From IMG/VR virus record IMGVR_UViG_3300020577_011595, positions 18,496-82,495 of that record: a stretch of 64,000 nt of DNA; one strand, 5' to 3'. Both the position numbers and the translations under genes were made by a program. The DNA is from a virus. Its lineage: Duplodnaviria; Caudoviricetes. Under the pieces are notes generated by a model that did not search any database, had not been told where the DNA came from, and was given only the letters and a program-made list of their open reading frames with translations. The number at the start of each line of letters is the position of its first letter. The first letter of the stretch is position 1. Below, one piece after another: positions 29,102 through 48,821 of the stretch.

Positions 29102-29112
29102 GGATCTCTCCT

Positions 29113-29971: not shown

Positions 29972-30184
29972 TCAAGCGCGAGGCACAACGGGTCGGGGCG
30001 CCTCCGCCTTCCGGGGCTCCTGGGAAGGCACGAGCGTGCCGATGATCACGCCCCGCTTGCAGGTCGGACAGTTGACCTCGGCCTCCCCCGACTTGTGGAG
30101 CACGAGCATGCTCGTCGAGGCCTTGCGCTTGCCGCCCGCGCCGTCGCGAAACAAGGGCTGGCCGCAGTGAGGGCACGCGCTCAT
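29972..30184 (-). CDS. Small zinc-finger protein, Mu Com-like
   Basis: Start ATG 30184. CPHCGQPLFR...AEVNCPTCK follows the Com-family CxxC-LL/LF...E.kCP.C pattern. Confidence 0.6.
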   Translation of the reverse strand: MSACPHCGQPLFRDGAGGKRKASTSMLVLHKSGEAEVNCPTCKRGVIIGTLVPSQEPRKAEAPRPVVPRA

Positions 30185-32100
30185 CGGAGGCTCTTCTTCG
30201 CGGGCTCGCTCGTGCGGCCCGCGCGGAGCCACGCCTTGAACCGCTGGATGGGCCACGAGCGCACCGTTCCGAGCAGACGGGGTCCCTTCGCGTCGTAGTT
30301 GCGGAGGTAGGCCGCGCGCGCCTCGGCGATCGTGCGGAACCCGAGCATGACCTTGTGCTCGTCGAACCCGCCGCCCTCGAGCTTCTTCTGGTTCACGATG
30401 AACACGCGCTCCGAGTCGCGATGCGGCCCGACGAAGACGTCGATGTCCTCGCCGTCGGCGCCCTTGGTGCCCTCGATGAACCCGTAGGGGTGCACCATCG
30501 TGGTCTCACCGTGCTCGCGCTTCTGCGGGTCGTACCAGCGGCGGACCGATCCCTTCGGGTTCTCGATCGCGACGTCGAGGCCCTGCACCACGAGGCGGTC
30601 CTTCACGGGGAGGTTCTTGATCAGCGACGCCACGCCGATCGGTCTGAAGATCAGGGACTTCTTCGTCTCCCACGGGGGCAGCTCGAACCCGAGCTTCTCC
30701 TCCGCGTTCGTCTCCCACTCCGCCAGATCGCCTCGGATGGTCGGAGACTTCGACGTGCGAAGCGCCGTCTCACGCATCTTCACGAGCTTCGCCTTCGCCT
30801 CCTCGATCTTCCCTTCCTTGGCGAGCCGCTGCGCGACGGAGAACCCGCCATCCCAGAAGAGCTGGTCGCTGCTCCGCTTCTTCTCCTCGCCGGGCATCTT
30901 GACGCCGTGCTGCTGGTAGAGCGCGCGCAGCCGCATGATGTCCTCACGGCGCTCGTCGAAGATCCCCTCGCTCTTCGCGGGGGCCGCCTTGCCGATGTCG
31001 TAGAGCACCACCTTGCCGGCCTTGTCGAGGCCCACCTGCACGTCGTCGTTGAGCGCGTAGCCCTTCTCGTGCATCGCGAGCAGCGCCGTGCGCGCGTCAT
31101 CGAGCTGCGCCTGCGTGAGCTTGCTCGGGATCTCGACGTAGGGCTTGATCTGGAAGCCCTTGTCGCCGTGGTGGACGTACTCGCTCCGCAGCATGCCGGG
31201 CACGCCCGCGCTCGCGAGCTTGTTGCCGACCTCGACCTGCTTGCGCAGCATCTCGTTCGCGTCGCGCGGAGATCGGTGCCCCGGGTTGAACGGCTGGTAG
31301 GGGACGGTCGTCGAGACCTTCACGACCTTGTCGCCCACGCGGAACGCGATCCCGTCGTCGCCCTTGCCGAGCAGCTTCGCCTTGCCGGAGATCACGGCGT
31401 CGATGTCCGGCCGACCCGACGCTGGAAGGTCGACGCGGCCCTCGAGATCGTTCTGGAGGTGTCGGAACGACGCCGCGGGCATCTTGGTCCCGTAGCCGCG
31501 CTCCAGCCCTGCCGCGGATGACGCGATGCGCACCGAGCCGTCTGCGTCCTGCGCAGCGTGCACCTCGAGCGGGTGGGCCTTCTCGCTGCCTGCGATGGCG
31601 GGGTGGACCTCGATCACGTGCTTCCCCTCGATCTTCTGCGGCGGGGGAGGCGGCGCCTGGCGCGCGTCGAAGAGGCTCGCCTGCTGCGGCGCCCGGGGCG
31701 CCTGCTTGGGGGTGTGCGAGAGCAGGTCGAGCTGCTGCGGCTTCTTCGCGGGCTCGGGCCCCTTGGGCGCTTCGGGCGCCCGCCCGAAGCCCAGGGCGCT
31801 GGCGGTGTGGGGGTCGAGCTTGGAGGGGTCGAGCTTGACCTTGCCGGCCCGGTTGCAGGTCCGGCAAGGGGCGCTGCTCACGACCTCTCCGCCCCCCATG
31901 ATCATCTGCCGGCTGATCACGTGCCGGAGCCCATGGCACACCGAGCACGAGCCGCCCTGAGCCCCCGCCCCCTGCCTCTTGGCCGACGGGTCCTCGTACG
32001 GGATCGTGTGGGCGGCGTCCGCCCACTTCCCGCCGCGCGGACCGTAGAACAGCCCCTTCCGCAGTCGCCCCGCGGTGTGCACGCGCACCGGGCGCCTCAC
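30181..32100 (-). CDS. Polyvalent protein: GPRGG tag + Zn finger + protein-kinase-like domain + inorganic-pyrophosphatase-like (InPase) domain
   Basis: GTG start overlapping TGA 32097. Kinase motifs LLGKGDDGIAF, KVVKV and VVLYDIG. InPase motifs IENPKGS..YGFIEGTKGADGEDIDVFVG..DEHKVMLGF. Confidence 0.8.
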   Translation of the reverse strand: MRRPVRVHTAGRLRKGLFYGPRGGKWADAAHTIPYEDPSAKRQGAGAQGGSCSVCHGLRHVISRQMIMGGGEVVSSAPCRTCNRAGKVKLDPSKLDPHTASALGFGRAPEAPKGPEPAKKPQQLDLLSHTPKQAPRAPQQASLFDARQAPPPPPQKIEGKHVIEVHPAIAGSEKAHPLEVHAAQDADGSVRIASSAAGLERGYGTKMPAASFRHLQNDLEGRVDLPASGRPDIDAVISGKAKLLGKGDDGIAFRVGDKVVKVSTTVPYQPFNPGHRSPRDANEMLRKQVEVGNKLASAGVPGMLRSEYVHHGDKGFQIKPYVEIPSKLTQAQLDDARTALLAMHEKGYALNDDVQVGLDKAGKVVLYDIGKAAPAKSEGIFDERREDIMRLRALYQQHGVKMPGEEKKRSSDQLFWDGGFSVAQRLAKEGKIEEAKAKLVKMRETALRTSKSPTIRGDLAEWETNAEEKLGFELPPWETKKSLIFRPIGVASLIKNLPVKDRLVVQGLDVAIENPKGSVRRWYDPQKREHGETTMVHPYGFIEGTKGADGEDIDVFVGPHRDSERVFIVNQKKLEGGGFDEHKVMLGFRTIAEARAAYLRNYDAKGPRLLGTVRSWPIQRFKAWLRAGRTSEPAKKSLR

Positions 32101-32297
32101 GTGCGGGTCCTGTCGTGGAGCTGCGTCAGCGCCCGGTTGAGGCTCTCCTGCGTCGGCGCCGTCGTTGGCTTCTGCGCCTTCGGAGCGGCCGCGGGGCAGG
32201 GCTCGACCGCGGCTTGCGACGACGCGGCGCAAGCGCACTGCCGGCATGCCTCGGCGCGATAGTCCCATCGGTGCGTCCCGTGCGCGATCCTCATCAT
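32097..32297 (-). CDS. Small Cys-rich hypothetical protein (66 aa)
   Basis: ATGA overlap upstream and GTGA overlap downstream. Sequence HRWDYRAEACRQCAC. Confidence 0.5.
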   Translation of the reverse strand: MMRIAHGTHRWDYRAEACRQCACAASSQAAVEPCPAAAPKAQKPTTAPTQESLNRALTQLHDRTRT

Positions 32298-34042
32298 GGC
32301 GTCCTCGCACCCTCGTAGGCCCGGTGAACGAACGCGAACTGCCGAGGGAACCCAAGCATGAGCCTGTCCCGCTCGAAGAGGTACATCCGCGTCACCTCGG
32401 CTGCGTTCTCGATCGGGAGCTTCTTCGCGTACGGCGAGACCCAGCCCTCGCGCTGCGACACGGCCCACAGGCGGTCGTGCCACTTCCGCACCGGCTCCGG
32501 GCCGCCGAGCACCCGCATGAGGTAGACGTTCAGCGCGTGCCCCAGCTCGTGCCGGATGACGCGGGGCCACCGCTCGATCGGGAGCGCGGGGTTCACGCGG
32601 ATCTCGTTCGCCGTCCAATAGGCGTAGTCGTGCTCCTCGAGCGGGTTCTGCGCGCGCGGGTGGTCCGTCGTGATCAACGTGACCCCCGTGTCCTTGCGGA
32701 AGAGCCACGGCGGCGCCTCGGCGACGATGCTCTCGACGACCTGCCGCTGCATCGGGTCTCCGATGCGCACGACGACGCCCTGCTCGGGCACGACGGCCCG
32801 ATGCGTGAGGTGTGGGCCTTCGGCCTTGCGGAGCGCCTCGTGGGCGAGCGCGAGGCGGTCGCTCTTCCGCAGCATGACCTCGGGCATCATCTCGCCCGTC
32901 TCGGGATCGAAGGTCCAGCCCTCGGGGACCTCGACCAGCTCGCAGGCGCACCACGGGTGCACGGGGCCGACGGTGGGCTTCCACGCCGTGCGCTTCACGC
33001 CGACGTTCGTCCCGTTCGCCGTCAGCTCGGAGAGCCGGAACACCTTGGGAGGCGACCCCGGGCCCGCGGTGAGGTGGAGCCGGATGCAGTCGGGGCACGC
33101 GGTCGGCGACGGGAGCTTCGCCACGCGGATGTCCTTCGGGTTGCGGCCCTTCGCCATCCCGCGCGCGAGGCCTTCCTGCATCGCGAACTGCTGCTCGGTC
33201 GCCGCGAGCCGCTGCATGTCCCGGGACCAGTCCTCGGTCGCGTGCCCGATGTCGCTCGCCAGCTCACGCCACGCGCCCTGCCGATCGATCGAGTCTTCCA
33301 GCTCACGCTGGATGGTGCCCATGTACCTCCGCCGCTGCTCGGCGTCCGCGTCGAGCACGAGCGCGCCGATCTCCAGCGCGAGTCGATCGCCCATGCCGCG
33401 CACGTACTGCCCCGCGTGGTAGCGGGCGGCGCCCATCGCCTGCTTGTCGACCTCGGTGAGGCTCTCGCGCGTGCGGTCGAGGTGGGCGACGAAGTCGTCG
33501 ATGGTCTGGTCCTCGTGCGTGCGGCGGCCCTTGGGATCCGCCGTCGCGCGGCCGTACTGGTAGGCGTAGTCGAGCAAGCGCAGGGCCGGGGGCCCTGCCT
33601 TCCCCGCTTCTCCCGACGCGAAGATCGTCGAGAGGTCCGACGGCGTGATCCCCAGGCTCAAGAGCCGCTGTAGGTCCTCTCCGGGGATCGCGTCGGGGCC
33701 CAGCACACCGACCGCGAACGCCGCGTGATGATCGCGCACGATGGCCTTGAGCGCCTCGAGCTGCGCGGGCGTGAGCAGCGCGAGCTTCCGCTGTGCGGCA
33801 CTCGCGCGGGCGGAGTCGGGCGCCGAAGCGAAGCCCACCATGTCCGGCCACGAGACCTCGTCGACGAAGCCGTTGGACTTGCGGAGCTTGCCCCCGAGCA
33901 CCTCCTTCGCGATGTAGCGAAGCAGCTCCGCGAAGATCCGATCCACGAGCGCGTCGTAGGCCTTCCCCACGCGCTCGTGGAGCTGGCGCATCGCCCGGGA
34001 TCGGATCTTCTCCGGCTGGTGCTCGTGGTCGGGCGCGCGCAT
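32294..34042 (-). CDS. MuF/SPP1 gp7-like head morphogenesis protein with C-terminal zincin metallopeptidase
   Basis: MuF-type ACPDC...GPVHPWCACEL. C-terminal RHELGH...WVSPYA...ENAAE (HExxH plus distal Glu). Confidence 0.82.
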   Translation of the reverse strand: MRAPDHEHQPEKIRSRAMRQLHERVGKAYDALVDRIFAELLRYIAKEVLGGKLRKSNGFVDEVSWPDMVGFASAPDSARASAAQRKLALLTPAQLEALKAIVRDHHAAFAVGVLGPDAIPGEDLQRLLSLGITPSDLSTIFASGEAGKAGPPALRLLDYAYQYGRATADPKGRRTHEDQTIDDFVAHLDRTRESLTEVDKQAMGAARYHAGQYVRGMGDRLALEIGALVLDADAEQRRRYMGTIQRELEDSIDRQGAWRELASDIGHATEDWSRDMQRLAATEQQFAMQEGLARGMAKGRNPKDIRVAKLPSPTACPDCIRLHLTAGPGSPPKVFRLSELTANGTNVGVKRTAWKPTVGPVHPWCACELVEVPEGWTFDPETGEMMPEVMLRKSDRLALAHEALRKAEGPHLTHRAVVPEQGVVVRIGDPMQRQVVESIVAEAPPWLFRKDTGVTLITTDHPRAQNPLEEHDYAYWTANEIRVNPALPIERWPRVIRHELGHALNVYLMRVLGGPEPVRKWHDRLWAVSQREGWVSPYAKKLPIENAAEVTRMYLFERDRLMLGFPRQFAFVHRAYEGARTP

Positions 34043-34054
34043 GGCTCCGCCAGG

Positions 34055-34849
34055 CTAGCAGCCCGTCGGAGGATCGGTCACGAGGTCGCCGAGCACCGCG
34101 TAGGTGACGACGACGTCGTTCTCGTCGTCGAGGTTCTCCAGCGTGAGCGCCGAGCAGCTCAGGGACGCGAGCAGGAACGCGCGCACGTCCTCGGCGCCGT
34201 CCGAGCCGCTCGTGTCCGCGGGGACGAGCAGCGTGATCGGGGTCTGCCCCGCACCCGCGTCGGTGCCGTTCGTCGTGCCCGTCGAGAGGCCCAGCGCGGT
34301 GAGCACGCCCGCGTCGGTGTCCGTGTCGATCACGATGCTGGCCGCCAGCCCGGACGTCGGGCTCAGAAGCCGAAGCTGCGAGCCGCCGTTCGTTCGCGCG
34401 ATCGTCGTGGGCACACCGCCCGCGCCCGCGATGCCTGCGAGCGCGGCTGCCGCGTTGATCCGGTTGATCACGGCCGCGAGCGACTGGTCCGCGGAGGTGA
34501 ACGCCACGGTGACCGCGGTCCCCGTGATCTCCAGCACCAGCTCCTCGCCGCCCACGAACCCGGTGGGGTACGAGCCGCCGACTCCCGTGACGATCGCCTG
34601 CGTCGCGCTCGTGCCGCCGGGCGTGAGCCGGATCGGGCCGGTGGCCTCGAAGTAGACGATGCGCGCCGCGGACACGTCGCCGAAGGGCACCGCGAAGTTG
34701 GTCTCCGAGGCCTCGAGCGTGATCGTCCCGCCCTCGGCGTGCTCCAGGGTGTCGAGGAGCTGCTGGAGCGCGCCCTCGAACACGGGCTTGCTCAGGTTGT
34801 TCTCGCGCCCGACCTCCAGGGTCAGGTCCACGTTCACGCGTACGCCCAT
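34055..34849 (-). CDS. Putative virion structural protein
   Basis: Start ATG 34849. Thr/Gly/Ala beta-rich, with LAAVINRINAAA and LTALGLSTG repeats of the kind seen in sheath insertion domains. Confidence 0.55.
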   Translation of the reverse strand: MGVRVNVDLTLEVGRENNLSKPVFEGALQQLLDTLEHAEGGTITLEASETNFAVPFGDVSAARIVYFEATGPIRLTPGGTSATQAIVTGVGGSYPTGFVGGEELVLEITGTAVTVAFTSADQSLAAVINRINAAAALAGIAGAGGVPTTIARTNGGSQLRLLSPTSGLAASIVIDTDTDAGVLTALGLSTGTTNGTDAGAGQTPITLLVPADTSGSDGAEDVRAFLLASLSCSALTLENLDDENDVVVTYAVLGDLVTDPPTGC

Positions 34850-34851
34850 CG

Positions 34852-36591
34852 TCAGCCTCCTCCTCGCGGGAGCCAGAGATCGATCGCTGCGCGCCTGCCC
34901 TGGCTCTTCTCGAGGCGGTCGCGCTCCCATCGGAGGCTACGCTCCATCGGGCTGCCTGCGTGAAACGGGTGCGCGGGCTCGCCCTGCGACATCTCCGGCC
35001 CGGGCTCGTCGTCCGGCTCGTCGGGGGCCGCGTCCTCGTCGCCCTCGTTCTGCCCGTGCCCGGGGCCGAAGAGGTCGTCGAAGTGATTTTCCCCGTGCGC
35101 GTCGGAGCCGCCACCCATGCCCGCCGTGGCTTCCTGCGCCTGCTGCTGCTGCGCGGAGGCCCACTGAATCCAGTTGGAGTCGAGGATGACGTCGCCGAGC
35201 TGGCCCGGCAGCGGCTCCTCGTTCTCCTCGGCGCGGATCTCGTTGACCGTCTTGAAGGCCTTGACGCGCTCGATCCTCGCCTTCCGCTCTTGCTCCTCGG
35301 CCTTGCTATCGAAGCCCGTGAACGAGAACTCGAAGTCGGGGTTGATGTCCCAGACGATGTGCCGGTTGATCGTCTCGGCGATGTGGTCGAGCAGCGGCCG
35401 CAGCCCCTTGTCCTTGCTCTCCGTGACCTCTTCGGCGTTGGGGCGTGACTGGTTGAGGCTCGAGGACTGCCCGCTGTTGCCGAAGATGAAGTTGATCTCG
35501 ACGGGGTCCGCGCCGTACATCGCGCAGATCAGCTTCGTCACCCAGTCCATCCACTGCCCGTACTCCATCTCACGGTTGTTCGTGTGCATGGAGACCCACT
35601 GGAGGTCCTCGGCGTTCACGATGGGCGTCTTCCACGCGTTCGTGACGCCCGAGATCATCGAGTACCACATGCGCCGGAACGCGCGGAGCTGGCGGTCTGG
35701 GATCGCGCCCTTGATGTTGATCAGCCCCTTGATCGCCGAGCCCTGCGTGAAGAACCGGGTGTTGTACTCGAAGCCGAACAGCCACGCGGTCACGAGCCGG
35801 ATGATCTGCTCGATGGGCGAGAAGCCGAACCCGTTGACGCGCAGATCCGAGCGTGGGTTCTTCACGCTGAACGCCAGCTCGTCGGTGGTGAACTCCGAGA
35901 TCACGGTGTTCTCGTAGACCTGCACGTAGGCGACGCGCGAGCGGAGGTCCTCCGGCTCGAGGTGCTCGATGTCGCTCACCGCGGGGCGAATCGTCTCGCT
36001 CGGGAGCGCGATGAACCGCGAGGGCCGACCGGCGTAGTCGCGGATCTTCTCGAAGCACCACTGGTCGTAGGTGAGGATGTCGCGCACGCCCTTCTTCACG
36101 AAGGTGCGGAACGAGTCGCGGTCGGCGGGCTTCTCGCCGTCCAGAAGCACGGCGGTCGTTTCGAGGAACCGCTCGATGGCCTCGGCCTCGCGCTGCTCGG
36201 CAGGGCTCATGCCCTTCTTCTGGTCGCGTCGATCGCGCAGCACGACGCGGTAGCCGCGGTCGTACTGGCCCTGCTGCGGAACGCAGAAGGCCGCGGCCTG
36301 GTCGACGCGGAGCTGGATGATCGCCGCGATGACCGTGTTCGAGACGCTCATCTGCCGCAGCGTCTCGTAGGTGAGGGAGCTGGGGCGCTGGCGCCAGCCG
36401 CCCCAATCCATGACCGAGTAGGGGTCGTGGAACATCGCCCGAGGCTTCTCGGTCGCGGGCGAGAGCGCATCGGGCATCGCCATGCCGGCCTGCACGAGGG
36501 CAGCCTGCATGGCCTCGGGGGAGACGTCCTCGTCCCCCCCTTCGCCGAGCGCCTTCACGAGCGCGTGGCGCGCTCTGTCGAGCACCGTCAT
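34852..36591 (-). CDS. Portal protein (HK97-family, Twort-like)
   Basis: Start ATG 36591. Motifs GFGFSPIEQ...FEYNTRFFTQGSAIKGLINIKG, GVTNAWKTPIV, and YGADPVEINF. Confidence 0.93.
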   Translation of the reverse strand: MTVLDRARHALVKALGEGGDEDVSPEAMQAALVQAGMAMPDALSPATEKPRAMFHDPYSVMDWGGWRQRPSSLTYETLRQMSVSNTVIAAIIQLRVDQAAAFCVPQQGQYDRGYRVVLRDRRDQKKGMSPAEQREAEAIERFLETTAVLLDGEKPADRDSFRTFVKKGVRDILTYDQWCFEKIRDYAGRPSRFIALPSETIRPAVSDIEHLEPEDLRSRVAYVQVYENTVISEFTTDELAFSVKNPRSDLRVNGFGFSPIEQIIRLVTAWLFGFEYNTRFFTQGSAIKGLINIKGAIPDRQLRAFRRMWYSMISGVTNAWKTPIVNAEDLQWVSMHTNNREMEYGQWMDWVTKLICAMYGADPVEINFIFGNSGQSSSLNQSRPNAEEVTESKDKGLRPLLDHIAETINRHIVWDINPDFEFSFTGFDSKAEEQERKARIERVKAFKTVNEIRAEENEEPLPGQLGDVILDSNWIQWASAQQQQAQEATAGMGGGSDAHGENHFDDLFGPGHGQNEGDEDAAPDEPDDEPGPEMSQGEPAHPFHAGSPMERSLRWERDRLEKSQGRRAAIDLWLPRGGG

Positions 36592-36605
36592 CCGCGCTCC
36601 TTGGT

Positions 36606-38270
36606 TCAGCCGTGGGCGTTGGGCTTGCCGTGGCAGGTGCAGGGCAGCATCGGGTTCCACAGGTTCATCGCCTTGTGGATCTCGCGACCCGTGTGCACGG
36701 GGCACTCGGGGGCCGCGCGCGCGACCGGGTCGGCCATGCGGGCGGCGACTCCGCGGACTTCGGCGCCACGTCGCCCGCCCTCGATGAACGCGCGCGCGGG
36801 GTCCATCGCGTCGGACTTCACGAGGTGCGAGACGTCGTCGTGACGCACAGCGATCTTGCGGGCCGTCGGCGGCGCCAGTTCGGGCTGGAGGAAGGGCGCG
36901 ATCTCGTGCGAGCGCGAGAACGCGAAGTCGCCGATCGCCGCGGTCAGGGAGTGCGCGCCCATCGCCGAGTTGCCGTCGTCGCTGAAGGCCGAGTCGGCGC
37001 GGGGCTTGAAGATCCCTCGAGCGACGAGGATCGCCTCGATGCTCGCGCGCGTGACGTCGTACTTCTTCGCCGCGCGCATGAGGTTCTTGTTCCGCGGGAT
37101 CGTCTGGACCAGCTCCGACATCACGGCGCGGCTCATCTCGACGACCTGCTCACGCGCCTGGAGCTGCTGGTGCTCGGGCTCGCGAGACTCGTGCTCGTAG
37201 GCCTCCTCGACGAACGCGCAGAGGTAGTCGTAGAGGTACTCCTCGGGGAGGTCCTGGTCCCGGTCGCCCGGGTCACGGAAGGCGTACAGCCCCTTCGCCA
37301 GCACACGGCCCGCGGGGTCGCGGAGCACGGGCGCAGCGTCCCGGGCAGGGACCGCGCGACGAGAGGGTTGGGGGGCGGCACGCGATCCCTGCCCGAGACT
37401 CTTCTGAAAGCTCGAGGCGAGCGCCGCGAGGCTCTTCTGCGCCGCGGCGTCGTCCTCGCCGTAGGTGAACGGCTTGCTGCCCGCACCTCGGCCGCCGACG
37501 CTCGCCGACCCGGGGCGCTTCGACTTCGGGGGCTTCGGCGGAGCCGGGGGAGGTGCCGGCGGCCCGGCTTGGCCCGCCGACGGGTCCAGCTCGCCCATGA
37601 GGGCGCTCATGGCGGCCTCCCAATCGATCCACGCGCCCATCGCCGCATGCGGCTGCTGCTGCTGGTGCGCGGGCGGGGGAGCGTGGGGCGCCGCGGGCTT
37701 GGGAACCTGCGGAGCGTGGATCTGCTGGGCGTTCGCCTGCGGCGCCTGCACGGGCGGGCCCTGCGTCGGGTAGCCCTGCGGAGCCATCGGATGCCCCATC
37801 GAAGCGAGCATCGGCGCGAGCTGCGACGCGAAGGGCATCTGCCGCCCGCCCGCGGCCATCATCGCAGGGTGCGCCGCCGGAACCCCAGCGCCCGGCATGC
37901 CCATCGGGGGAGCCTGGCCCACCATCGGCGGCCCCTGGTGCCCCATCATCGGGGGGGCCGCCTGCCCGGCCATCGGAGGCGCTGCCGGACGTGCGGGCGG
38001 TCCCTGGGGCGGGCCATGCGGCGGAGGACCCTGCGGCGGGCCGCCTGCGCCCGCGGGCTTGCCGAAGCCCGTGGGCATGCCCTTCCACATGCTCGGCGTG
38101 CCGAACTCGTTGGCCTCGGCGGGGCTGGCGAGGCCCTTCGCCATGAACTCCGCGCCCCAATCGACGAACGCCCCTCCGTTGGGGTCGCCGACGTAGTTGG
38201 CGGGCGAGAAGGATCCCTCGGGCAGGGCGATGCCCGTCTTGGTCGTGTGCGTGGTCCGGGGCTGCGTCAT
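36606..38270 (-). CDS. Head-module protein with long Pro/Gln/Met/Gly low-complexity region
   Basis: GAGGAG upstream. About 150 aa of GPPQGPP/APPMMG/QAPQ composition followed by a helical domain (EEYLYDYLCAFVEEAYE). Confidence 0.7.
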   Translation of the reverse strand: MTQPRTTHTTKTGIALPEGSFSPANYVGDPNGGAFVDWGAEFMAKGLASPAEANEFGTPSMWKGMPTGFGKPAGAGGPPQGPPPHGPPQGPPARPAAPPMAGQAAPPMMGHQGPPMVGQAPPMGMPGAGVPAAHPAMMAAGGRQMPFASQLAPMLASMGHPMAPQGYPTQGPPVQAPQANAQQIHAPQVPKPAAPHAPPPAHQQQQPHAAMGAWIDWEAAMSALMGELDPSAGQAGPPAPPPAPPKPPKSKRPGSASVGGRGAGSKPFTYGEDDAAAQKSLAALASSFQKSLGQGSRAAPQPSRRAVPARDAAPVLRDPAGRVLAKGLYAFRDPGDRDQDLPEEYLYDYLCAFVEEAYEHESREPEHQQLQAREQVVEMSRAVMSELVQTIPRNKNLMRAAKKYDVTRASIEAILVARGIFKPRADSAFSDDGNSAMGAHSLTAAIGDFAFSRSHEIAPFLQPELAPPTARKIAVRHDDVSHLVKSDAMDPARAFIEGGRRGAEVRGVAARMADPVARAAPECPVHTGREIHKAMNLWNPMLPCTCHGKPNAHG

Positions 38271-41300: not shown

Positions 41301-43329
41301 CGACCTTCTCGGGCTGCTCGGGCTCGCCGAGCTGCTGCCGTAGCACGGCGGACCCACGGCGCCCCTTCTGCCTGCCCGCCCACCGCTCGGCGGCGTCGGA
41401 CGCGGCCCGCTCGGTCGCGTCCCTGCGTTGCTTCGCCTGCGAGAGGCTCTGGTCGTACGCCTCGCGGTCCGCCTGCCCGCGCGACGCCCGCGAGACGCGC
41501 TCCTCGGCCTCCCCAGCGCCCTGCCTGACCTCGGCGAGGGCCCGGTCGGTGTCGGACCGCGCAGCCTCGTCGAGCCGCCCCAGCGCCGCGTGCGCGGCTT
41601 CGACGTGCTGCTGCGCCTGGGGGTCGTGCCCGAACATGCGGTTGACGTCCTCGGGACTGCCCATCCCGAAGACGTCGAGCACACCGTCGTCGTCGCCGCC
41701 CTGGGGAGGCATCTGGTAGCCCCCGCCCCCGAGCGCGGCGGGGCCCACAGGGCCCTGGGGCGCGGGCTCCGCCTCTCGGGGCGCTGTCGGCTGCGCCGGG
41801 GCGCCAGGAGCCTCCGGGGCGCCGGGAGAGGGCGTCTGCCCCAGGGTGCGCGCGCTCGCCGTGACCGAGGCGAGCCCCTGCTTGCCGGAAGCGAGAGCGT
41901 CGGACGCGTAGGCCTCGAGCTGCTTGTTCTTCTTTTCGGCGGCCTCGAGCAGCGACCCGAGATCGGGCCCGAGGACCGACGCGGGGGCCGCGCTGCTGTT
42001 GAACGCGCGCCCGAACGCCTTGAGGTTCTCGACGATCTTCGAGTCGCCCTCGGCGGTCTTCGCGCCGGCCTGCCGCGCGCGGAGCCCGACGACGATGTGG
42101 TTCAGCGCCTCTTCGAGCTGGCCCGCGAGCTGGGGGTCGTGCTGGCGGATCGCCGCGACGACCTGCATGCCCTGCTGCCCGATCTCGTTCGCGCCGGGCA
42201 GGGGCTTGGGCTGCGCGCCGGCCGGCTGGGCCGGCGCCGGGGGCTTCTGCCCGGGCGGCTTGGGGGCCGCGCCCTGCGGCTGTCCCGACCCCTCGTGGTA
42301 GGGGATCGTGTGCTCGGGGTTGGCCCACCGACCGCCCTGCGGGCCCGTGAACAACTGCGCCTTGGCCAGGCCCTCGCGCACCGCCGCTTCCCGCTGGGCA
42401 GATAGTTTCTTCACGCGCTTCTCCAGGTGGTCGACCTCCGAGCGTAGGTCGTGCGCCGCTCGCTCGTCGACGCCGTTCTCGGCGAGCCGCTTCTGCCGCC
42501 ACGCGAACAGCGCGTCCTTGCGCGCCTCTTCGCGGCGGTACCTCTCGGGGGTCATCTCGCTCGCGGGTTGCTGCCAGGCGTGCACGTCGCCCATCGCCAC
42601 GCGCCGCATCCCGCGATCGAGCGCGCTCCGCTCCCAGCTCTCGGTGAGCGACGCGGAGTCGACGTCTACGAGGTCGGGCACCGTGAGGCGGTCGACGACG
42701 GCCTTGCCCTTCGTGTTCTTGGCCTCGAGCACCTCGAGCGCCGCGCGCTTCTGGCCCAGCTCGTGTGCCGCCTTGCCGAGAGCCTTCGCGGCGCGCTCCA
42801 GGGTGCCGAGCCTGGCAGCCTGCTCCGGGTCCTGCTTCTTCGCGCAGCCCGTGCCCATGATCACGTGACGCCCGTTCGTCAGCTCGACGGCGGCGTGCAC
42901 CTCGTGCTCTCTCGCGCACCGCGCGCACACGGCAAGCACGCCGCTACCCGGGATCGGGCGGCTGTACTCGACCCCGAGGTGCCCCTCGACCAGCTCGCGC
43001 TCGCGCGTGTCGCGGATGCCGACGATCCGCTTGATCTTCACGTGCTTCTCGGACTCGGAGAGCAGCGCCGGCCGCCCGTGCTCGGCCGGGTTCCAGTGGA
43101 TCGTGTGCTGCGGGTCCGCCCACAGCCCACCTTTCGGACCGATGAACGGGCCGCCGCTCATCTTCGCCATCATCGGCACCACGAGCCGGCGCTCGAGGTC
43201 GGCGTAGTAGTCGGGCCGTTCCTGAAGGTGGTTCGCGACCTTGCCGGCCTTCTCGCGCGCATCGCCGTGGCCCTTCTCGCGCTCGTAGGCGATGGCCGCT
43301 GCGATCTCGGTCGGCGTGGGTCGGTGCAT
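38320..43329 (-). CDS. Large polyvalent protein (1669 aa): DUF5661-like N-terminus, repeated tags, C-terminal DdrB/ParB-like domain
   Basis: Start reset to ATG 43329. EREKGH...ANHLQERPDYYADL is DUF5661-like. ARYKLANASDLVASHD...QERAY...NPDAVNGPPVV...LGGNSRTM is DdrB-ParB-like. Confidence 0.8.
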   Translation of the reverse strand: MHRPTPTEIAAAIAYEREKGHGDAREKAGKVANHLQERPDYYADLERRLVVPMMAKMSGGPFIGPKGGLWADPQHTIHWNPAEHGRPALLSESEKHVKIKRIVGIRDTRERELVEGHLGVEYSRPIPGSGVLAVCARCAREHEVHAAVELTNGRHVIMGTGCAKKQDPEQAARLGTLERAAKALGKAAHELGQKRAALEVLEAKNTKGKAVVDRLTVPDLVDVDSASLTESWERSALDRGMRRVAMGDVHAWQQPASEMTPERYRREEARKDALFAWRQKRLAENGVDERAAHDLRSEVDHLEKRVKKLSAQREAAVREGLAKAQLFTGPQGGRWANPEHTIPYHEGSGQPQGAAPKPPGQKPPAPAQPAGAQPKPLPGANEIGQQGMQVVAAIRQHDPQLAGQLEEALNHIVVGLRARQAGAKTAEGDSKIVENLKAFGRAFNSSAAPASVLGPDLGSLLEAAEKKNKQLEAYASDALASGKQGLASVTASARTLGQTPSPGAPEAPGAPAQPTAPREAEPAPQGPVGPAALGGGGYQMPPQGGDDDGVLDVFGMGSPEDVNRMFGHDPQAQQHVEAAHAALGRLDEAARSDTDRALAEVRQGAGEAEERVSRASRGQADREAYDQSLSQAKQRRDATERAASDAAERWAGRQKGRRGSAVLRQQLGEPEQPEKVEISPERAAARTQARPRKPKAEAPMERSITPTMIKAMIGGQPQPQPSIGPAYGAAPGQRASIPDYQDIYFQPRDADHRQREEEAEVNRRQADADASTRAHGFHGTGNVRLDPTLLYVPAVRTMAMVGGPQIAQRAPLVVADHQRPRLAAGGPGMPQGNPPRAQADAGRVPRSPDAREDALAPAPPMGPRPSPGVADPAGTPGARRASPLPVVPVQLPPGAEPEPEEDDEAEDEETEKSQAALAALYHALHKAGAGAASHKYVRRVPTGNPKRPWRYYYAESAIARDAQAGEEVSLGHGQGIAKVHEVEKDGTVHVEMGGRVRAIKPDEWANLLVRGYGTRYHDWAEKRAEASVNAVLRHVPKALLGELEGSDEERFAQLQKRVPEVYAKLQQAFGRAGVNPFRAKSILATALERRGWEPEARAAAIGSVLTQRTSATRFSEIVRGAENLAAGARVTVGHVGTVVELRGGADAETDDFADRVAEIAKRAEAELAKLSEALAKAQSGSTNDRARALAEALASSAIQKLNLLTSAFPGLKDKVADEARNAMAAAPAAAPHPAPKTDGGSTAVYVAGDGGQPKAIRARYKLANASDLVASHDPLKGFKKREDYPEGVQERAYHRDEAEKGKVLRNAMSLNPAFVANTNPDAVNGPPVVIEQDGKLIALGGNSRTMSMQHAYVHHGEKGAALKAYLAEHAHEFGLRPEDVDALEHPVLVRVIEPEDTSTASQKLLVRQLNESFTQAMDPRTMQVAMGRKLDEQSLAALGNDMKEDETLSAFLASNRSERFVNALQRAGIIDQRNANQYLKKGTKLLNEDGRVLVERILVGRLVGDADILSNTGPKIVGNIAAAVPYMVQAKTSGGKGYDVGGDLAVALSAYNDLHHRVETGAIPALDPKMEPKTFDRLFNYFDDLFGGRHPVVDNQNARALLELLVRKPGPQQQAAVWRDYVRRAGQNPEGQGSMFGPAKSPGEVLRETVAAALSRSDEKTPANQRALF

Positions 43330-43334
43330 GCGGG

Positions 43335-46300
43335 TCAGGCTCGGGGGATCGTCAGGCGGTTGCCGACGAGGTGCTGGTAGCGCGGGTCGACGAGGGGCCG
43401 GGAGAGCAGGTTGCGGAGGGCCTTGTGGAGCAGCTCGCTCTTGCCGAACGCCGCGAAGATGGCGTCGAAGTGCGGCGTCATCGCGTCGACCTCCGCGTCG
43501 CTCGGCCAGAGCTTGCTGACTGCGCTGCCCGCCATCGCGATGCCTGTGAGGTAGGTGTTCTCGCGGCCCTTCGCGTGCAGCTTGCGCTGCACGTACCTCT
43601 CGAACGTGCGGGCGAACACCTCGCACGTCGAACGCCAGTAGTCGGCCTTGCCCGCCGACATCCGCTTGTCGCGTACGTACTGGCGAGTCTCGGCGGCGAG
43701 CCTCTCACGGAACGCGCCCATCGCGTCCGACGTCATCAGCGCGCGCATGGCGCGGAACGTCGGATCGTCGTCGGCCTTCGTGTCCCGCACCAGGACGTCC
43801 TCCGAGACGAAGCGCGCTTCCTTCCGGCCTGCGTAGGTGCGCTGCGTGGCCTCGCCCGCCGCCTCGTAGATGAGGTTGTCGAACATGTGCCCCCACTCGT
43901 GCGCGAGCGCGCCCGCTCCCGAGTCGCGGGTCAGGTTGATCACACGCGCGGTGGGTTCGTAGTGCGCGGAGGCCGTGCCCTTGCCTCGCGCGCCGATCGC
44001 CATCGCGAGGCGCCCGTTGAACGAGGCCATGCCCGCCGGCAGCCCGAGCACGTCGGTGAGGTCCGCGAACGAGTCGACGACGCTCTTGAGGTGGTGCTCG
44101 CGTTCGCCGTCGGTGACGCTCTTGCCCCACTGCACGCCGCGCATCCCGTACTTCCCGCCCTTGCTCTTGTCGAGCAGGTCGAGGCCCTGCTTGACGCTGC
44201 GATACTCGGACGGCGGGCCCTTCCGCACCATCTTCGACGTGTTGTAGACCTTGGACAGATCCCACTCGTCCTCGGCCTTCGACTGCTTCGCGCCGAAGGC
44301 CTCGTTCATCGACTTGCCCTCGAGCATGCGCATCACGTGGTTGGCCATCGCCGCGTTGCGCTCTTCCGCCGTGGGGTACTTCGCGTTCAGGCGGCGCGCG
44401 AAGTCGTTGGCCTGCGCGAGCGGGGAGAGCGACCCGCGGCCGGCGATGGCGTTGTGGAAGTCGCGGATCGCTTCGGTAGCTGCCGAGGTGGGTCCGTACT
44501 CCTCACTCACCCGCTGATGGAGCACCGCCACGTCGCTCAAGAACGCGCGCACGGCACCCAGCGGGTTGTCCGCGTGGTCTTTGCTCTCGACGAATTTCGA
44601 GAGGAGGCCGCGCGCCTCGCTCCACGCGGCGTAGTAGGCCTCGCGCTGCTTCCGCAGATGCTCCTCGGCCGTGACGGCCTCGCCAGAGGGAGCACTGCGC
44701 GCGAGCAGCTTGACCCCGTCGTACTTCGTGGGCGCCGACCACGCGCCCTCCTCGCCCGTGCGATGGCGCGGGATCGTGGGGCGCTGCGGGAACTTCCGCA
44801 GCATGAGGTGGCCGAGCAGGACCTTGAGCGTCTGCGGGCCGTTGCCCTCCGCCGTGATCTTCTGCGCCACCGAGACGAACTCGACGGGCTCCTGGCGCTC
44901 CAGGAAGTCGCGAGTGAAGAGACGGTCCGCGTCGGCCGACGCAGAGGCATCGCGCGCGTTCTTCCACACGAGCGCCTTGTGCCGGGCGCTGCCGCCCACG
45001 TCCTCGCCGCGCTGCTCGACCGCGGACGAGCGATCGTTGACGAACTCCTCCGCCTCCTTCGCCTTCTTCGCAGTGGCCTCTGCGTCACCCCGGGGAGTGC
45101 CCTCGGGGGCTCTCGGGGCCACCGGGATCACGAGGCGCTCGGGCGGCTTGGCCGGGGCCTCGGCGGGCGGCGCCCACGGTGTCTCACGCTTCCCCGCGCC
45201 TTCGATCGATCGCACGGGCTCGATCGTGCGCTTCGCTCCCGTCGTCCACAGCTCGGCCGTGCCGTCTGCGCGGATGATCAGCTCGCGAAGGTTGCGCGAG
45301 CGGCCTTCGATGGGGGCGAGATACACGCGCCGCCCGTACTTGCCGCCCGAGACCTCCGTGTCGTCGATCTCGGCGCGGAACTTCATCCCGTTGACCGTGA
45401 CCGTCTGGCCCTTCGTGAAGCGCATCATGGGCGTCTGGGCCTTGACCCGATCACGGTCGGCCTTCGCCTTCTCAGCCTCCACGCGGAGTCGCTCGCGGAT
45501 GTCGTCCGTCCGCGCGCGTGTCGCGAGCTGCTGGTCCTCGGGGACCTTGTCCTTGTCGGTCCAGCCCCCGGGCGGCGGCTTGCCGAACTCGATCTCGGTC
45601 ACCCTCGGCTTCGCGGGCTCGGGCTTCGGAGCAGGGTCCGCCGGCTTCACGCCTCGAGCGCGGTCCATCGACTCGGCGAGATCCGCCTTCGTGCTGCCGG
45701 GGTTGAGCTTGTGCCACGCGCGGCGGAGGGACTCTTCGTCAGCCACCGGACCGTCGCCGGCTCCGTGCGCGAGCAGGTGAAGCACGCGCTCCGCCAGCTC
45801 GTTCGCGCGCTTCATGTCCTTCCGCGCCATCGCGTCGGTAGCCTGGGCGAGCAGCTCCTCACCCGAGACGGTGGGCGACGTCGTCGGCTTCTTGGGCTCG
45901 GCGGAGAGCAGCACGCCGCCGCCGTCGTTCACGGTCCGCACGATGCTGGAGAACGCGCTGAACGGCTGGGAGTCGGGCATGCGCTCCCAGCCGTCGGGGC
46001 TCTGCGCGCTGGGCTTCTGCTTCTCCCAGCCCATCTTGCCGTCCTTGGCCTTGCGCCAAGCGGCCGTGCCGTCCTTCGCCACGACCAGGCTGCCCACGGG
46101 GAGTGCGTTCACCTTCTCCATCGAGAGGGTGCCCGCGGGCGTGACCTTCGGCTTCGACGGGTTGATCGCCTCGTCGAGCCGGCGCTGGTCGAGCCGGGGC
46201 TTGACGCGCACGGGCTCATCGCTGTCCACGAGCTTCTCGTGCGCGCGCTTCGGCGTGACGACCTTCGGCTCGACCGGGATCGCGGGCGTCGGCCCCTTCT

Positions 46301-48821
46301 CGGGCGCGGGCGTGCGGAGACCCATCGCGTCGAGCGCGGGGCGCAGCTCTGCCGGGATCGACGAGCCGCCCATCAGCGGCTTCCCGTCGCGGCTGATGTA
46401 CGTGATCAGGTTGCCCACGGCCTTCGCGCGTCCCTCGCGGATCATCCGCACCGTCTGGAGGTCGCTGTGCAGGCTCTCCATGATGGAGTCGTACCGATCC
46501 CAGGGCTCGCGCTCCTCCGGCGTCATCTTGCGGCCCGAGTTGCGCTCGATGTGCGAACGCAGCCTCGCGATGTTGTCGCGTCCGTCGAGCACTGCCCGGG
46601 AGTCGCGGACGTTGTCGATCGCCGCGCTCGCGGCCTCGAGAGCAGAGAGCGCCTCGTGCTTGATCTCGGTGCTGTAGTCCCCGTGCTGGACGAGCAGCTT
46701 CGCGTCCGCGATGCGCGCCTTGTGCTGGTCGATGAACGTCTGCGCGAACTCGATCTGCTTCGGCGTGCCCGACCACGGCTTGCCCGTGGGAGCGGGCTCG
46801 GGCGCCGCGGGCGCGGCCGCTTCCTTCGCTGCCTCGGCGGTCTTCTTGTCGTGCTCCTCGAACTCGCTGAAGACGTCCCGCTCCTTCGCGAGCGAGCCCT
46901 GATGCCACTGCCTGTGCTTCAGGCGCGCGTCGGCGACCGCCTTCGCGTGCTTCGGCCAGAGCATCCCGGGGTCGAAGACCTGCCGCCCGTGCTCGGTCGT
47001 GGCGACCGAGCCGTCCTGGCCGACCGCGAGGTACTGGTTGCCGGGGAGGTAGACGCGGACGCCCTTGCCCTCCTTCGTCCAGACCTTCGCGCGCTCGACG
47101 CCGTGCTCACGAATGAGCGCAGCGAGCTTCTCGGCGTGCTCCAGCGCGCGGGCCTTCGTGCCCGCGGGACTCTTGAAACCGCCCTGCGGCTCACCCTGCG
47201 GGGCCGGCGTGTCGACGCCCGTGCTCGCCGCCACGTGGGACACGCCCGTGACCTCGAGCCCGTGCTCGGCGGGCTCGGGGCGCGCGCTGGTTGCTGCGGG
47301 GATTGCAGGCTTCGCGGCTTCGTGCTGCGCGGCGGCCGCCCGCAGCGGGGCCATCACGTTCTCCTCGAGCCACTGCCGCGCCTTGCCCGGCCCGATGCCC
47401 TCGAGCAGCGGGGGCATGCGCGCGAGCATGCCCTGGACGAGGTGCCCGTCGGCGCGCGCGAGCGCGTCGTCGGCTGCCCTCTTCGCCATCTCCGCCCACA
47501 CGGGGATGATCGCGGGCTCGACGTGGTGGTGCTCGTGTACCGGCTCCGACGGGCGAGAGGGCGGTGCAGGGGCCGCCTTCGGAGGCGCAGGTGCCGCCGG
47601 CTCGCCGAAGTCGAACCCGAGCTGGCCTCGCCGCTTCTCGGCGGCCTCCGCACCGCCCACGTGCTTCTCGCGGAGCCACGACTGGTATTCGTGCTCGTGA
47701 TAGAAGTAGCGCCAGGGGTTCTTGGGGTTTCCCGTCGGGATCCGCTTGAAATACTTGCCGCCGCGGGCGACGCCCTTCTCCAGGTTCTTCGCCTTCTCGT
47801 CCTCCCGCGCCCACCCCCAACGCTTGCCCGCGGGGCCCTCGTGGTCGTGGTGCAGATGGGCGTCCGCGTCCTTCACGTCCGCCCCGAAGGTGTGGGAGAA
47901 ACCGCGCGCAGCGTGGGTGACACCGCGGGCTCCTGCGTTCGTCGCGTCATGCCCTCCGCCGGTCGTGCCGAGGTGATGCAGCATCGCCTCGGCCTGGACG
48001 CGAGAGAACGTCGAGTGCGCCGACATCCCGCTGGGCTTGTGCGTGACGTGGTACTGCATCCCGCCGTAGCCCTTCTCGCGGTGCAGCGCGTAGTCCCCGA
48101 GCTGGATGCCCTCCCGCGTCTCCTTACCGTCGCGCGTCGCGATCTCGAAGGAGCCCTTCTTCGTCGGGACCTTGATCCGTTCCGCGCCCTCCCCGTGAGA
48201 CTCGGCGTAGCTGTAGATCCACCCCCCGCGCCCGTCAGGACGCCGGCTCAGGTACTTCCCGCCTCGTGCTTCTGCCTTCTCGAGGGGCACCACGAGGGTC
48301 ATGGACTTCGTCACGTTGCGTGCTCCCTGGAACCGGACCGTCGGGGTCTTCCCGTAGTCCGTCTGGTTGTTGCGCTTCCAGTATGCCGTGGCGCGTCGGG
48401 TGACCTCGTCGCGCGTGTCGGCCGGGACGTGGCGCATCGCGTCCCTCATGGTGCCCACGAGCCTCCCGCGGGCATGGATCAGGCGGGGCGTCTGGGTCTT
48501 CTGCGAGAAGCTGACGGGGCTGTCCTGCACGAGGCGCTGCACGCGCTGCTCGTCGGCAGGCTCGAGGCCCAGCCCGCGCGTCACGTCGTCGATGTCAACG
48601 ACGTGCGGCGTCGGCCGGGCGCGGGGGTCCTCGCCCTCGGCGTCCGTGCGCATCATCCGAGTCACCTCGGCCTGCATCGCGCCCGCTTCGCCGAGCCCGG
48701 ACGCCGCCAGCGCCCGGAGCTTGTGGCTCCCGTAGTGCGGGAAGCTTGCCGCGCCCGGGAGGTGTGCCTGGGACCGGGACGGCTCCTGGGCCTTCTCCAG
48801 AGGGTCGCGCTCGCGCTTCAT
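43335..48821 (-). CDS. Large polyvalent protein (1828 aa) with C-terminal zincin metallopeptidase and LPD1-like domain
   Basis: YGMRGVQWG...ER, LAMAIGARGKG..AHYEP, SGAGALAHEWGH, and YWRSTCEVFARTFERYV match LPD1/MPTase polyvalent modules. Confidence 0.85.
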   Translation of the reverse strand: MKRERDPLEKAQEPSRSQAHLPGAASFPHYGSHKLRALAASGLGEAGAMQAEVTRMMRTDAEGEDPRARPTPHVVDIDDVTRGLGLEPADEQRVQRLVQDSPVSFSQKTQTPRLIHARGRLVGTMRDAMRHVPADTRDEVTRRATAYWKRNNQTDYGKTPTVRFQGARNVTKSMTLVVPLEKAEARGGKYLSRRPDGRGGWIYSYAESHGEGAERIKVPTKKGSFEIATRDGKETREGIQLGDYALHREKGYGGMQYHVTHKPSGMSAHSTFSRVQAEAMLHHLGTTGGGHDATNAGARGVTHAARGFSHTFGADVKDADAHLHHDHEGPAGKRWGWAREDEKAKNLEKGVARGGKYFKRIPTGNPKNPWRYFYHEHEYQSWLREKHVGGAEAAEKRRGQLGFDFGEPAAPAPPKAAPAPPSRPSEPVHEHHHVEPAIIPVWAEMAKRAADDALARADGHLVQGMLARMPPLLEGIGPGKARQWLEENVMAPLRAAAAQHEAAKPAIPAATSARPEPAEHGLEVTGVSHVAASTGVDTPAPQGEPQGGFKSPAGTKARALEHAEKLAALIREHGVERAKVWTKEGKGVRVYLPGNQYLAVGQDGSVATTEHGRQVFDPGMLWPKHAKAVADARLKHRQWHQGSLAKERDVFSEFEEHDKKTAEAAKEAAAPAAPEPAPTGKPWSGTPKQIEFAQTFIDQHKARIADAKLLVQHGDYSTEIKHEALSALEAASAAIDNVRDSRAVLDGRDNIARLRSHIERNSGRKMTPEEREPWDRYDSIMESLHSDLQTVRMIREGRAKAVGNLITYISRDGKPLMGGSSIPAELRPALDAMGLRTPAPEKGPTPAIPVEPKVVTPKRAHEKLVDSDEPVRVKPRLDQRRLDEAINPSKPKVTPAGTLSMEKVNALPVGSLVVAKDGTAAWRKAKDGKMGWEKQKPSAQSPDGWERMPDSQPFSAFSSIVRTVNDGGGVLLSAEPKKPTTSPTVSGEELLAQATDAMARKDMKRANELAERVLHLLAHGAGDGPVADEESLRRAWHKLNPGSTKADLAESMDRARGVKPADPAPKPEPAKPRVTEIEFGKPPPGGWTDKDKVPEDQQLATRARTDDIRERLRVEAEKAKADRDRVKAQTPMMRFTKGQTVTVNGMKFRAEIDDTEVSGGKYGRRVYLAPIEGRSRNLRELIIRADGTAELWTTGAKRTIEPVRSIEGAGKRETPWAPPAEAPAKPPERLVIPVAPRAPEGTPRGDAEATAKKAKEAEEFVNDRSSAVEQRGEDVGGSARHKALVWKNARDASASADADRLFTRDFLERQEPVEFVSVAQKITAEGNGPQTLKVLLGHLMLRKFPQRPTIPRHRTGEEGAWSAPTKYDGVKLLARSAPSGEAVTAEEHLRKQREAYYAAWSEARGLLSKFVESKDHADNPLGAVRAFLSDVAVLHQRVSEEYGPTSAATEAIRDFHNAIAGRGSLSPLAQANDFARRLNAKYPTAEERNAAMANHVMRMLEGKSMNEAFGAKQSKAEDEWDLSKVYNTSKMVRKGPPSEYRSVKQGLDLLDKSKGGKYGMRGVQWGKSVTDGEREHHLKSVVDSFADLTDVLGLPAGMASFNGRLAMAIGARGKGTASAHYEPTARVINLTRDSGAGALAHEWGHMFDNLIYEAAGEATQRTYAGRKEARFVSEDVLVRDTKADDDPTFRAMRALMTSDAMGAFRERLAAETRQYVRDKRMSAGKADYWRSTCEVFARTFERYVQRKLHAKGRENTYLTGIAMAGSAVSKLWPSDAEVDAMTPHFDAIFAAFGKSELLHKALRNLLSRPLVDPRYQHLVGNRLTIPRA

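Follow-up and report, generated by a model that had tools for sequence, protein, structure and literature searches.

Lysine Junctions with Conserved Tags in Putative Capsid Cargo Proteins of an Uncultured SPO1/Twort-Like Phage

Introduction

Phage proteins that travel in the capsid and are the first to enter the cell are hard to predict from sequence. The question of which proteins these may be, and how they are processed, is raised by a 64-kb stretch of DNA (hereafter the window), which forms the final part of a viral contig of 82.5 kb in IMG/VR (IMGVR_UViG_3300020577_011595; 70% GC, estimated to be 83% complete). Here five long genes, named C, D, E, H and I, flank the portal gene between the genes for the large terminase (TerL) and the prohead protease. 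The original prediction had spoken of more than 5,000 aa encoded by five genes around the portal, and this is borne out by a total of 5,272 aa.

In the passages of Iyer et al. (2017; PMC5512222) used here, phage-type polyvalent proteins are predicted to be packaged, processed and injected, the processing being credited to their own zincin. For the window we arrive at a different view of the processing step: we consider it reasonably probable that C, D, H and I serve as polyvalent cargo of the phage type and are cut into modules by the HK97-type prohead protease.

Results

Junctions and tags in the window

All-against-all comparison of the locus proteins confirmed the shared tags that had been suspected, in two forms of three copies each. 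Tag 1, GPxGGxWADxxHTIx[YW], occurs twice in D and once in I, while tag 2, KYxxRxPxGx(2-5)WxYxY, occurs twice in C and once in D; K-[A/G/M] stands before every copy, and the two forms mostly have a (R/K)GGK(W/Y) core in common. All seven tag junctions follow one scheme: Φ-x-K-[A/G/S/M] (Φ, hydrophobic residue), then 2-8 residues, then the tag. The pentapeptide [RKQ]GG[KRL][WY] is found only six times in the whole 82-kb proteome, each time in C, D or I and each time 2-8 residues after Φ-x-K-[AGSM]. No Pfam family covers tag 1 or tag 2.

The junctions, like all genes and domains given below by window coordinates, lie on the minus strand (a vertical bar marks the predicted cut). Two of the three in C carry tag 2, namely PLEK182|AEA-RGGKY-LSRRPDGRGGWIYSY (48207..48278) and NLEK349|GVA-RGGKY-FKRIPTGNPKNPWRYFY (47700..47777); the third, LLDK1552|S-KGGKY (44148..44177), which the original prediction did not list, coincides exactly with the point at which PHROG and NCBIfam begin to match the zincin module. 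D has tag 1 in PMMAK|MSGGPFIGP-KGGLW-ADPQHTIHW (43093..43161) and GLAK323|AQLFTGP-QGGRW-ANPEHTIPY (42298..42366), and tag 2 in ALHK926|AGAGAASHKYVRRVPTGNPKRPWRYYY (40471..40554). In I, tag 1 stands at the N-terminus, GRLRK15|GLFYGP-RGGKW-ADAAHTIPY (31996..32064), and forms a small beta meander in the AlphaFold2 (AF2) model, with a predicted local distance difference test score (pLDDT) of 57-82, behind a disordered propeptide.

The original prediction had named K-[A/S/G] as the cutting site. This dipeptide as such is at chance level in C, D, E and I, and what is enriched, in the head module only, is L-x-K-[A/S/G]: 33 sites were observed there versus 7.13 +/- 2.65 expected (none of 500 shuffles reached 33; z ~10), and 12 versus 10.45 expected in the rest of the genome. 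Three control patterns are not enriched, as seen from the observed versus expected numbers for the head module and the rest, respectively: L.R[ASG], 16 versus 11.06 and 39 versus 38.22; L.E[ASG], 15 versus 10.42 and 29 versus 28.39; L.K followed by any residue other than A, S or G, 18 versus 19.05 and 34 versus 28.66. Site numbers are also high in the scaffold (6 versus 0.4 expected) and the protease (4 versus 0.34). The putative cleavage code is better written as Φ-x-K|[G/A/S] than as bare K-[A/S/G].

Junctions in related loci and wider databases

Portal-based retrieval gave 42 related IMG/VR loci. Tag 1 is almost always preceded in them by L-x-K-[GAS]-G-P-[YF]-I, and tag 2 by L-x-K-[GA] with 3-6 more residues; a second unit, K-S|M-D-A-I-x-x-L-x-x-L-x-K|, is often found upstream of the junction. 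The architecture that had been proposed as a search target in metagenomic contigs recurs in the closer relatives, whose conserved frame, where the contig covers it, comprises TerL, a small gene for a 165-aa protein (g165), the N-terminus of C, the C-terminal domain of E, portal, G, H, (I) and protease. Locus L051 has the same layout as the window. Mosaicism is high from TerL to E, even among close relatives, and in loci L015, L016 and L021 the linker position of H, between its MuF and zincin domains, has received a complete tag-1 junction as an insertion.

A 46-residue profile built on the tag-1 junction was run against 1.84 billion representative proteins and matched 787 cluster representatives at E <= 1e-3 (493 at E <= 1e-10), with up to five junction copies in a single protein. 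Instances were counted in the best 150 of these 787 proteins, which hold 312 of them: K[GAS] lies directly upstream of tag 1 in 284 (91%) and Φ-x-K-[GAS] in 275, the median spacing of the copies is 303 residues, and 45 are placed at the very N-terminus, preceded by an M...L-x-K extension of 6-20 residues. At P3, two residues ahead of the lysine, 93% of 163 instances have a hydrophobic residue, and for tag 2 the upstream Φ-x-K-[GAS] is present in 42 of 52. The domains of tag carriers are diverse, including InPase, LPD1, Zeta-toxin/AAA_33, RelA/SpoT, ART + NUDIX, GNAT and MuF, as well as SNF2-family, PAPS-reductase and topoisomerase I domains.

Among 50,697 deposited phage genomes, tblastn with the tag-1 and tag-2 peptides found none at E <= 1-10 apart from one chance-level match, and the locus as a whole had no megablast match among phages. 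The literature search, made with the motif strings of tag 1, found no paper containing them. The distant tag carriers P0038 and P0036 lie on short contigs with no head genes on them.

Prohead protease and major capsid protein

The protease (249 aa, 29113..29862; phrog_1028, E 2.9e-48) is of the HK97/Herelleviridae type and 44% identical to that of the cultured Herelleviridae phage CP-51. His64 and Ser125, which are presumably the catalytic residues, are invariant in the alignment. Directly after the catalytic domain lies an invariant A-K167|S-L-S (29353-29370), followed by a copy of the N-arm of the major capsid protein (MCP), which reads SLSAGSAVSDPGTAPGEGFPLRTESLE in relatives (L015:6750-6860; L019:15083-15172; L037:16655-16759) and is more degenerate in the window (29250-29370). 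This arrangement looks like self-cleavage combined with targeting, and the N-arm copy may mimic a signal for capsid targeting. In the CP-51 protease, too, the C-terminus is similar to the MCP N-terminus.

The MCP itself (471 aa, 26622..28037; phrog_752, E 1.9e-90; SPO1 Gp6.1, E 4e-55) begins with ~30 residues ending in DLHK30|ALSAG (27933-27959), the predicted maturation site, which is conserved in relatives and aligns with ALNK|ALSAG of CP-51, ALNK|ALEAG of SPO1 and VVK24|S25 of Staphylococcus phage 812. For the latter, an older PDB entry of the MCP has 463 residues, including V22-V23-K24-S25, and a later deposit has 439 residues and starts with S25. The capsid protein of HK97 is reportedly cut at K|S. 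We found no paper stating the cleavage site of a Herelleviridae MCP; PMC12282133 and PMC12886913 do not address it.

The in silico data support a match between the junction and the predicted specificity of the prohead protease. Where checked, junction sites are located either in flexible linkers (the I propeptide; K55, K393 and K406 of H) or at the start of a conserved domain (K326 of E).

Polyvalent genes of the locus

The polyvalent identity suggested for the head module is upheld by both domain content and position. The hallmark domains of the phage subset are present (zincin, LPD, DdrB-ParB, InPase, truncated kinase and, by a weak match, MuF), the genes adjoin virion genes from TerL to the protease around the portal, and the polypeptides are multi-domain: I combines a Zn ribbon, a kinase fold and InPase, H a MuF-like domain and a zincin, C a zincin and LPD1 with ~1500 aa of other modules, and D a DdrB-ParB domain with other modules.

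C (1828 aa, 200 kDa, pI 9.4; 43335..48821) has an N-terminal part of ~200 aa kept in relatives and a middle part of ~1200 aa without a family. Its zincin and LPD1 module (43422..44165; LPD1, E 7.9e-16; NF041907 CLCA_X, E 4e-29; phrog_616, E 7.6e-36) holds the first of two HExxH zincins that had been expected, with HEWGH at aa 1641 (43887-43901) inside the CLCA_X-like match. D (1669 aa, 179 kDa; 38320..43329) could be read as a 1768-aa open reading frame (ORF); since this overlaps C and has low GC at third codon positions (GC3) there, we took the shorter call. The ParB-like domain noticed earlier proved to be a DdrB-like ParB domain (39154..39567; PF18763, E 6.4e-13; phrog_5143, phrog_2299). 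Of the LPD1 and DUF5661 modules claimed together, LPD1 stood, while the DUF5661-like segment at the N-terminus of D (43189..43284; PF18905, E 0.0027) fell below the Pfam cut-off. About 70% of C and D has no family match: scans of ten cut-out modules of the two proteins against Pfam, PHROG and NCBIfam returned the DdrB-ParB domain only, and a sequence search of C and D against PDB gave no match.

I (639 aa, pI 9.7; 30181..32100) is built of a propeptide, tag 1, a Zn ribbon, a kinase and InPase. A beta-domain and a minimal protein-kinase fold (30901..31653; GKGDDG, VVK, LNDDVQ, DIG) make up its central region, and the kinase-like assignment gained a confident structural basis: residues 150-430 of the AF2 model mostly have pLDDT >90, and Foldseek against PDB gave at least 500 matches at E <= 1e-3, those listed being protein kinases or kinase domains. 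The module family of which this region is part has 69 homologues; P0223, a protein with this kinase module, is located outside any head module. Such a fold agrees with the description by Iyer et al. of polyvalent proteins whose kinase has no C-lobe (PMC5512222). The pyrophosphatase-like domain is InPase (30226..30603; PF18823, E 6.1e-38). A DarB-like PHROG match was rejected as DarB, being confined to the InPase region. Next to I lies a small Zn-ribbon-like ORF (70 aa, 29972..30184) with two CxxC pairs and an LHK|S site; a 73-aa gene holds its position in L051.

H (582 aa; 32294..34042) joins a MuF-like domain to a C-terminal zincin. The former (32936-33316) displays CxxC...HPWCAC, with an invariant C..C...HPxCxC signature, and matches PF04233 (Phage_Mu_F) weakly (E 0.23 over the whole profile; among 19 homologues, five have a match, the best at E 3.6e-4). 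The second of the expected zincins is found at 32297-32797, with HELGH at aa 498 (32537-32551). Foldseek with the whole H model gave weak zincin matches only (E >= 0.085), and VIA-align revealed the relationship: the modelled C-terminal domain aligns with M34-type zincin catalytic domains at Z 9.4, 7.7 and 7.3. SprT-like is matched by 13 and Peptidase_Mx1 by 10 of the 19 H homologues. The inter-domain linker with MLRK393|S and ALRK406|A (32822..32872) is disordered in the model, where K55, K393 and K406 all fall into segments with pLDDT <50.

E (554 aa; 36606..38270) has a low-complexity N-terminal half rich in P, Q, G and M, and its predicted cut VLAK326|GLY (37284-37304) marks the start of a C-terminal domain conserved in relatives (36609-37292). 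Family searches gave no match for E, and ESM Atlas gave no usable lead for this C-terminal domain; we group E with the polyvalent proteins because of the junction-like site only, as it has no recognised domain.

Head module and source genome

Spurious ORFs are numerous at 70% GC, so genes were called by GC3, and values of ~0.9 or higher back the reading frames. Nearly all genes of the window lie on the minus strand, on which the order from 5' to 3' is TerL, g165, C, D, E, portal, G, H, I, the 70-aa gene, protease, scaffold and MCP, with neck, tail-sheath and other tail genes downstream of MCP. TerL (551 aa, 49450..51105; phrog_38, E 1.1e-60; Terminase_6C, weak) is the upstream boundary of the locus. 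The small, lysine-poor g165 protein (165 aa, 48952..49449) has no family match, and its gene adjoins TerL in relatives as judged by tblastn synteny. The scaffold-like protein (336 aa) is encoded at 28106..29116.

The portal (579 aa, 34852..36591; PF04860, E 1.3e-21; phrog_12) has the N-terminus HALVK13|ALGEGG, and its L-x-K-A pattern is retained in many relatives; the portal itself may be trimmed here, as its sequence suggests. The start reads MTVLDRARHALVK|ALGEGG at 36544-36564. Several related loci have the portal gene split in frame by an insert of 138 or 164 aa ending in ...HN (L036:9689-10102, L043:5522-6013, also L038, L044 and L045), which looks like a mini-intein. G (264 aa, 34055..34849), an acidic protein (pI 4.05) with a single lysine, is conserved immediately downstream of the portal and is probably not cargo.

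What the window contains is the head-morphogenesis module of a SPO1/Twort-like phage of ~100 kb, uncultured and related to Herelleviridae. Its portal is 37-41% identical to those of Bacillus and Lysinibacillus Herelleviridae and its MCP matches that of SPO1, but the genome size of ~100 kb, the 70% GC and the extra genes between portal and protease make its membership of the family uncertain. These genes number three to four in the clade of the window. In CP-51, the genes for portal, protease, scaffold and MCP are neighbours, so the earlier remark that portal and protease genes are adjacent in Twort-like phages was right. Herelleviridae genomes range from 125 to 170 kb (PMC7414437). Members of this family have Firmicutes as hosts. 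Genomes of relatives of the window phage (L019, L024, L027, L031) appear to have ~100-108 kb despite a similar MCP and portal, and one may speculate that such small genomes leave room in the capsid for protein cargo. A tRNA gene search found none, and the host search among genome contigs returned a single 8-kb contig of a gammaproteobacterial metagenome-assembled genome, which is probably mis-binned.

Discussion

From these data we can only infer packaging, cleavage by the prohead protease, a role of the tag, ejection and any anti-defence action. The unit of construction is a "cassette" in which an amphipathic propeptide or linker, short and terminating in Φ-x-K, is followed by G, A or S and then by a tag of ~20 residues. 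Precursors would be co-assembled into the prohead, where the amphipathic propeptide could act as the capsid targeting sequence (CTS) of T4 does; for H, the portal binding of MuF/gp7-type proteins is one precedent of how it might enter the prohead (PMC5512222). The prohead protease would then cut after the junction lysine with the same specificity as for MCP, the scaffold and itself, releasing modules of ~15-130 kDa, each with the tag at its new N-terminus: residues 11-182, 183-349, 350-1552 and 1553-1800 of C, 55-323, 324-926 and 927-1176 of D, and 16-639 of I. Finally, the modules would exit together with the DNA and become active at an early stage in the infected cell, the delivered set comprising the zincins, the DdrB-ParB nuclease-like domain, the minimal kinase, InPase and many modules without assignment. 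Candidate roles of the tag are a recognition element C-terminal of the cut, an anchor to DNA or to the capsid interior, or an ejection signal. Only tentatively do we suggest that Φ-x-K|[G/A/S] with the (R/K)GGK(W/Y) tag 2-8 residues further on is a portable "pack-cut-deliver" label, which would send whatever module lies downstream of it into the prohead, be cut by the prohead protease and leave a tag that holds or guides the fragment for ejection; we see this as possible rather than probable.

Several points weigh against the proposed packaging and cutting of these proteins. The enrichment of L-x-K-[ASG] is modest in individual genes (5 versus 2.3 expected in C, 3 versus 1.0 in I, 5 versus 1.8 in D), and a stretch of ~1,200 aa in C has no L-type site at all. 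Some L-x-K-[ASG] sites, such as K246 in the glycine loop of the kinase of I and K360 of the same protein, fall inside the folded kinase, so cutting there is unlikely. The start codon of I is uncertain, with no clear ribosome-binding site, and the status of E as "cargo" is uncertain as well. That the 439-residue deposit of the phage 812 MCP is the mature chain cut after lysine is our own interpretation. The junction lysine could also be merely a conserved structural residue of a tag mini-domain.

This last point leads to another explanation, which we regard as unlikely: the polyvalent proteins are packaged, the prohead protease does not cut their junctions, and any processing is performed by the zincins of C and H themselves, before packaging or after injection, while Φ-x-K-[GAS] is part of a folded tag or linker with another role, for example DNA binding, docking or oligomerisation. 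Zincin autoprocessing is what Iyer et al. propose with reference to P1 DdrB (PMC5512222), and the locus has two zincins alongside two tag forms; moreover, the tag is modelled as a small beta structure, and its lysine is conserved equally with the tag core, which would also fit a structural role. Φ-x-K|[AS], however, is also present at the maturation site of MCP and at the self-site of the protease, which zincins are not expected to process, and the pattern is enriched in the scaffold too. Many tag-bearing proteins have no zincin recognisable in Pfam, and their N-terminal instances have only the extension of 6-20 aa, M...LxK, which resembles a removable propeptide.

Injection itself would be wrong if the products were assembly or structural factors (inner body, core scaffold, DNA-condensing proteins, portal accessories) or late non-virion enzymes. 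The strongly mosaic region from TerL to E fits conflict genes rather than assembly parts; tag carriers have effector- or toxin-type domains (Zeta toxin, RelA/SpoT, ART + NUDIX, GNAT, SNF2-family, topoisomerase I); and InPase, DdrB-ParB and MuF are domains of virion-delivered proteins (PMC5512222). Such roles, to which we assign a low probability, agree with the basic character of C and I (pI 9.4 and 9.7), with the lysine content of head-module proteins (5.15% versus 2.37% for all others), with the ~70% of C and D that has no enzymatic annotation and the low-complexity half of E, and with the C-terminal domain of E, G and H being conserved as structural genes are. A GC-rich genome with many spurious ORFs and a plain K[ASG] at chance level might finally suggest that composition or chance accounts for the tags and L-x-K-[ASG] sites, the ORFs being long and of low complexity. 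This is extremely improbable, given reading frames backed by GC3 ~0.9 or more, a shuffle z of ~10 with clean controls, and a motif that recurs in 787 protein clusters and in syntenic loci; we regard it as refuted by the profile matches to these clusters, the upstream K[GAS] in the best-150 set and the shuffle test.

The reading that the prohead protease cuts these polyvalent proteins has consequences beyond the locus. A validated junction would serve to recognise cargo by its sequence in a large group of uncultured phages, mark the module boundaries in giant "dark" polyproteins and point to many candidate anti-defence or host-takeover enzymes. For this lineage, the polyvalent model would then change, with the head protease taking the place of zincin self-processing. 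Should the label interpretation be true as well, the clusters, at least 787, would represent a searchable catalogue of hundreds of uncharacterised injected phage effectors, and the SPO1-like capsids of these ~100-kb phages may trade DNA capacity for protein cargo. The junction could also offer a handle for loading foreign proteins into capsids, like the CTS of T4.

Comparison with Known Systems

The original prediction called the combination undescribed, and this holds in part. The load-process-inject concept for polyvalent proteins is already published (PMC5512222); the junction with its tag is without a Pfam family, a match in deposited phages or a paper found for tag 1. What appears to be new is the "grammar" of the cassette, that is, a Φ-x-K propeptide or linker, a small residue and a conserved tag placed before unrelated modules, and its wide spread in metagenomes. 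The likeness to the proteins of Iyer et al. includes the zincin metallopeptidase, LPD1, DdrB-ParB, InPase, the C-lobe-less kinase and a MuF-like domain, as well as the position beside virion genes in phages of the portal-terminase type (PMC5512222). The passages searched in that paper contain no repeated junction motif, propeptide-plus-tag cassette or link to a prohead protease, and most modules of the window differ in having no LPD or Pfam assignment.

A mechanistic analogy is T4, in which an N-terminal CTS propeptide (~10 aa, L/I-x-E|) of the internal proteins and Alt is removed by gp21 and the cargo is injected with the DNA. Common to both are the hydrophobic residue two positions before the cut, the short propeptide and the simplicity of the motif. 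T4 differs in having a gp21-family protease, E before the cut and separate small cargo genes, whereas the window has an HK97-type protease, K before the cut and concatenated cassettes, and its conserved tag would stay on the mature fragment. With K instead of E before the cut and a protease of another family, the window has no T4-type CTS, and the analogy is one of mechanism only. φKZ and SPN3US are jumbo phages with a T4-like protease cutting after glutamate, and we know of no repeated cut-plus-tag junction joining unrelated effector modules in them. In both, the prohead protease processes many head-internal proteins, large ones included, at a short motif, and ejection follows (PMC10052503, PMC7411985, PMC5694885).

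The Dar proteins of P1 (DarA, DarB, DdrA, DdrB, Hdf) resemble the window proteins as virion-packaged anti-restriction proteins, and DdrB, which is proteolytically processed, shares the ParB-type domain (PMC5512222). P1 belongs to another phage lineage, while the locus of the window is part of a head module; no homologues of DarA, Hdf or DarB were detected in the window, the DdrB-ParB domain alone being present. With MuF/SPP1 gp7 minor head proteins and MuF toxins, H has in common the MuF-like core, a C-terminal domain of effector type and the neighbourhood of the portal; it differs in its weak Pfam match and in having a zincin as C-terminal domain, with lysine-site linkers between this and MuF.

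Among cultured relatives, gp27, gp28 and gp30 of CP-51, encoded upstream of the portal (L047 1303-6775), have in common ΦΦDΦxK|[AG] at the N-terminus and, behind it, a segment G..G.TFTR.QW that looks like a hairpin; gp28 is a protein of 1086 aa with HESAH. Judging from these sequences, cultured Herelleviridae may use a looser design of the same propeptide-plus-tag type.

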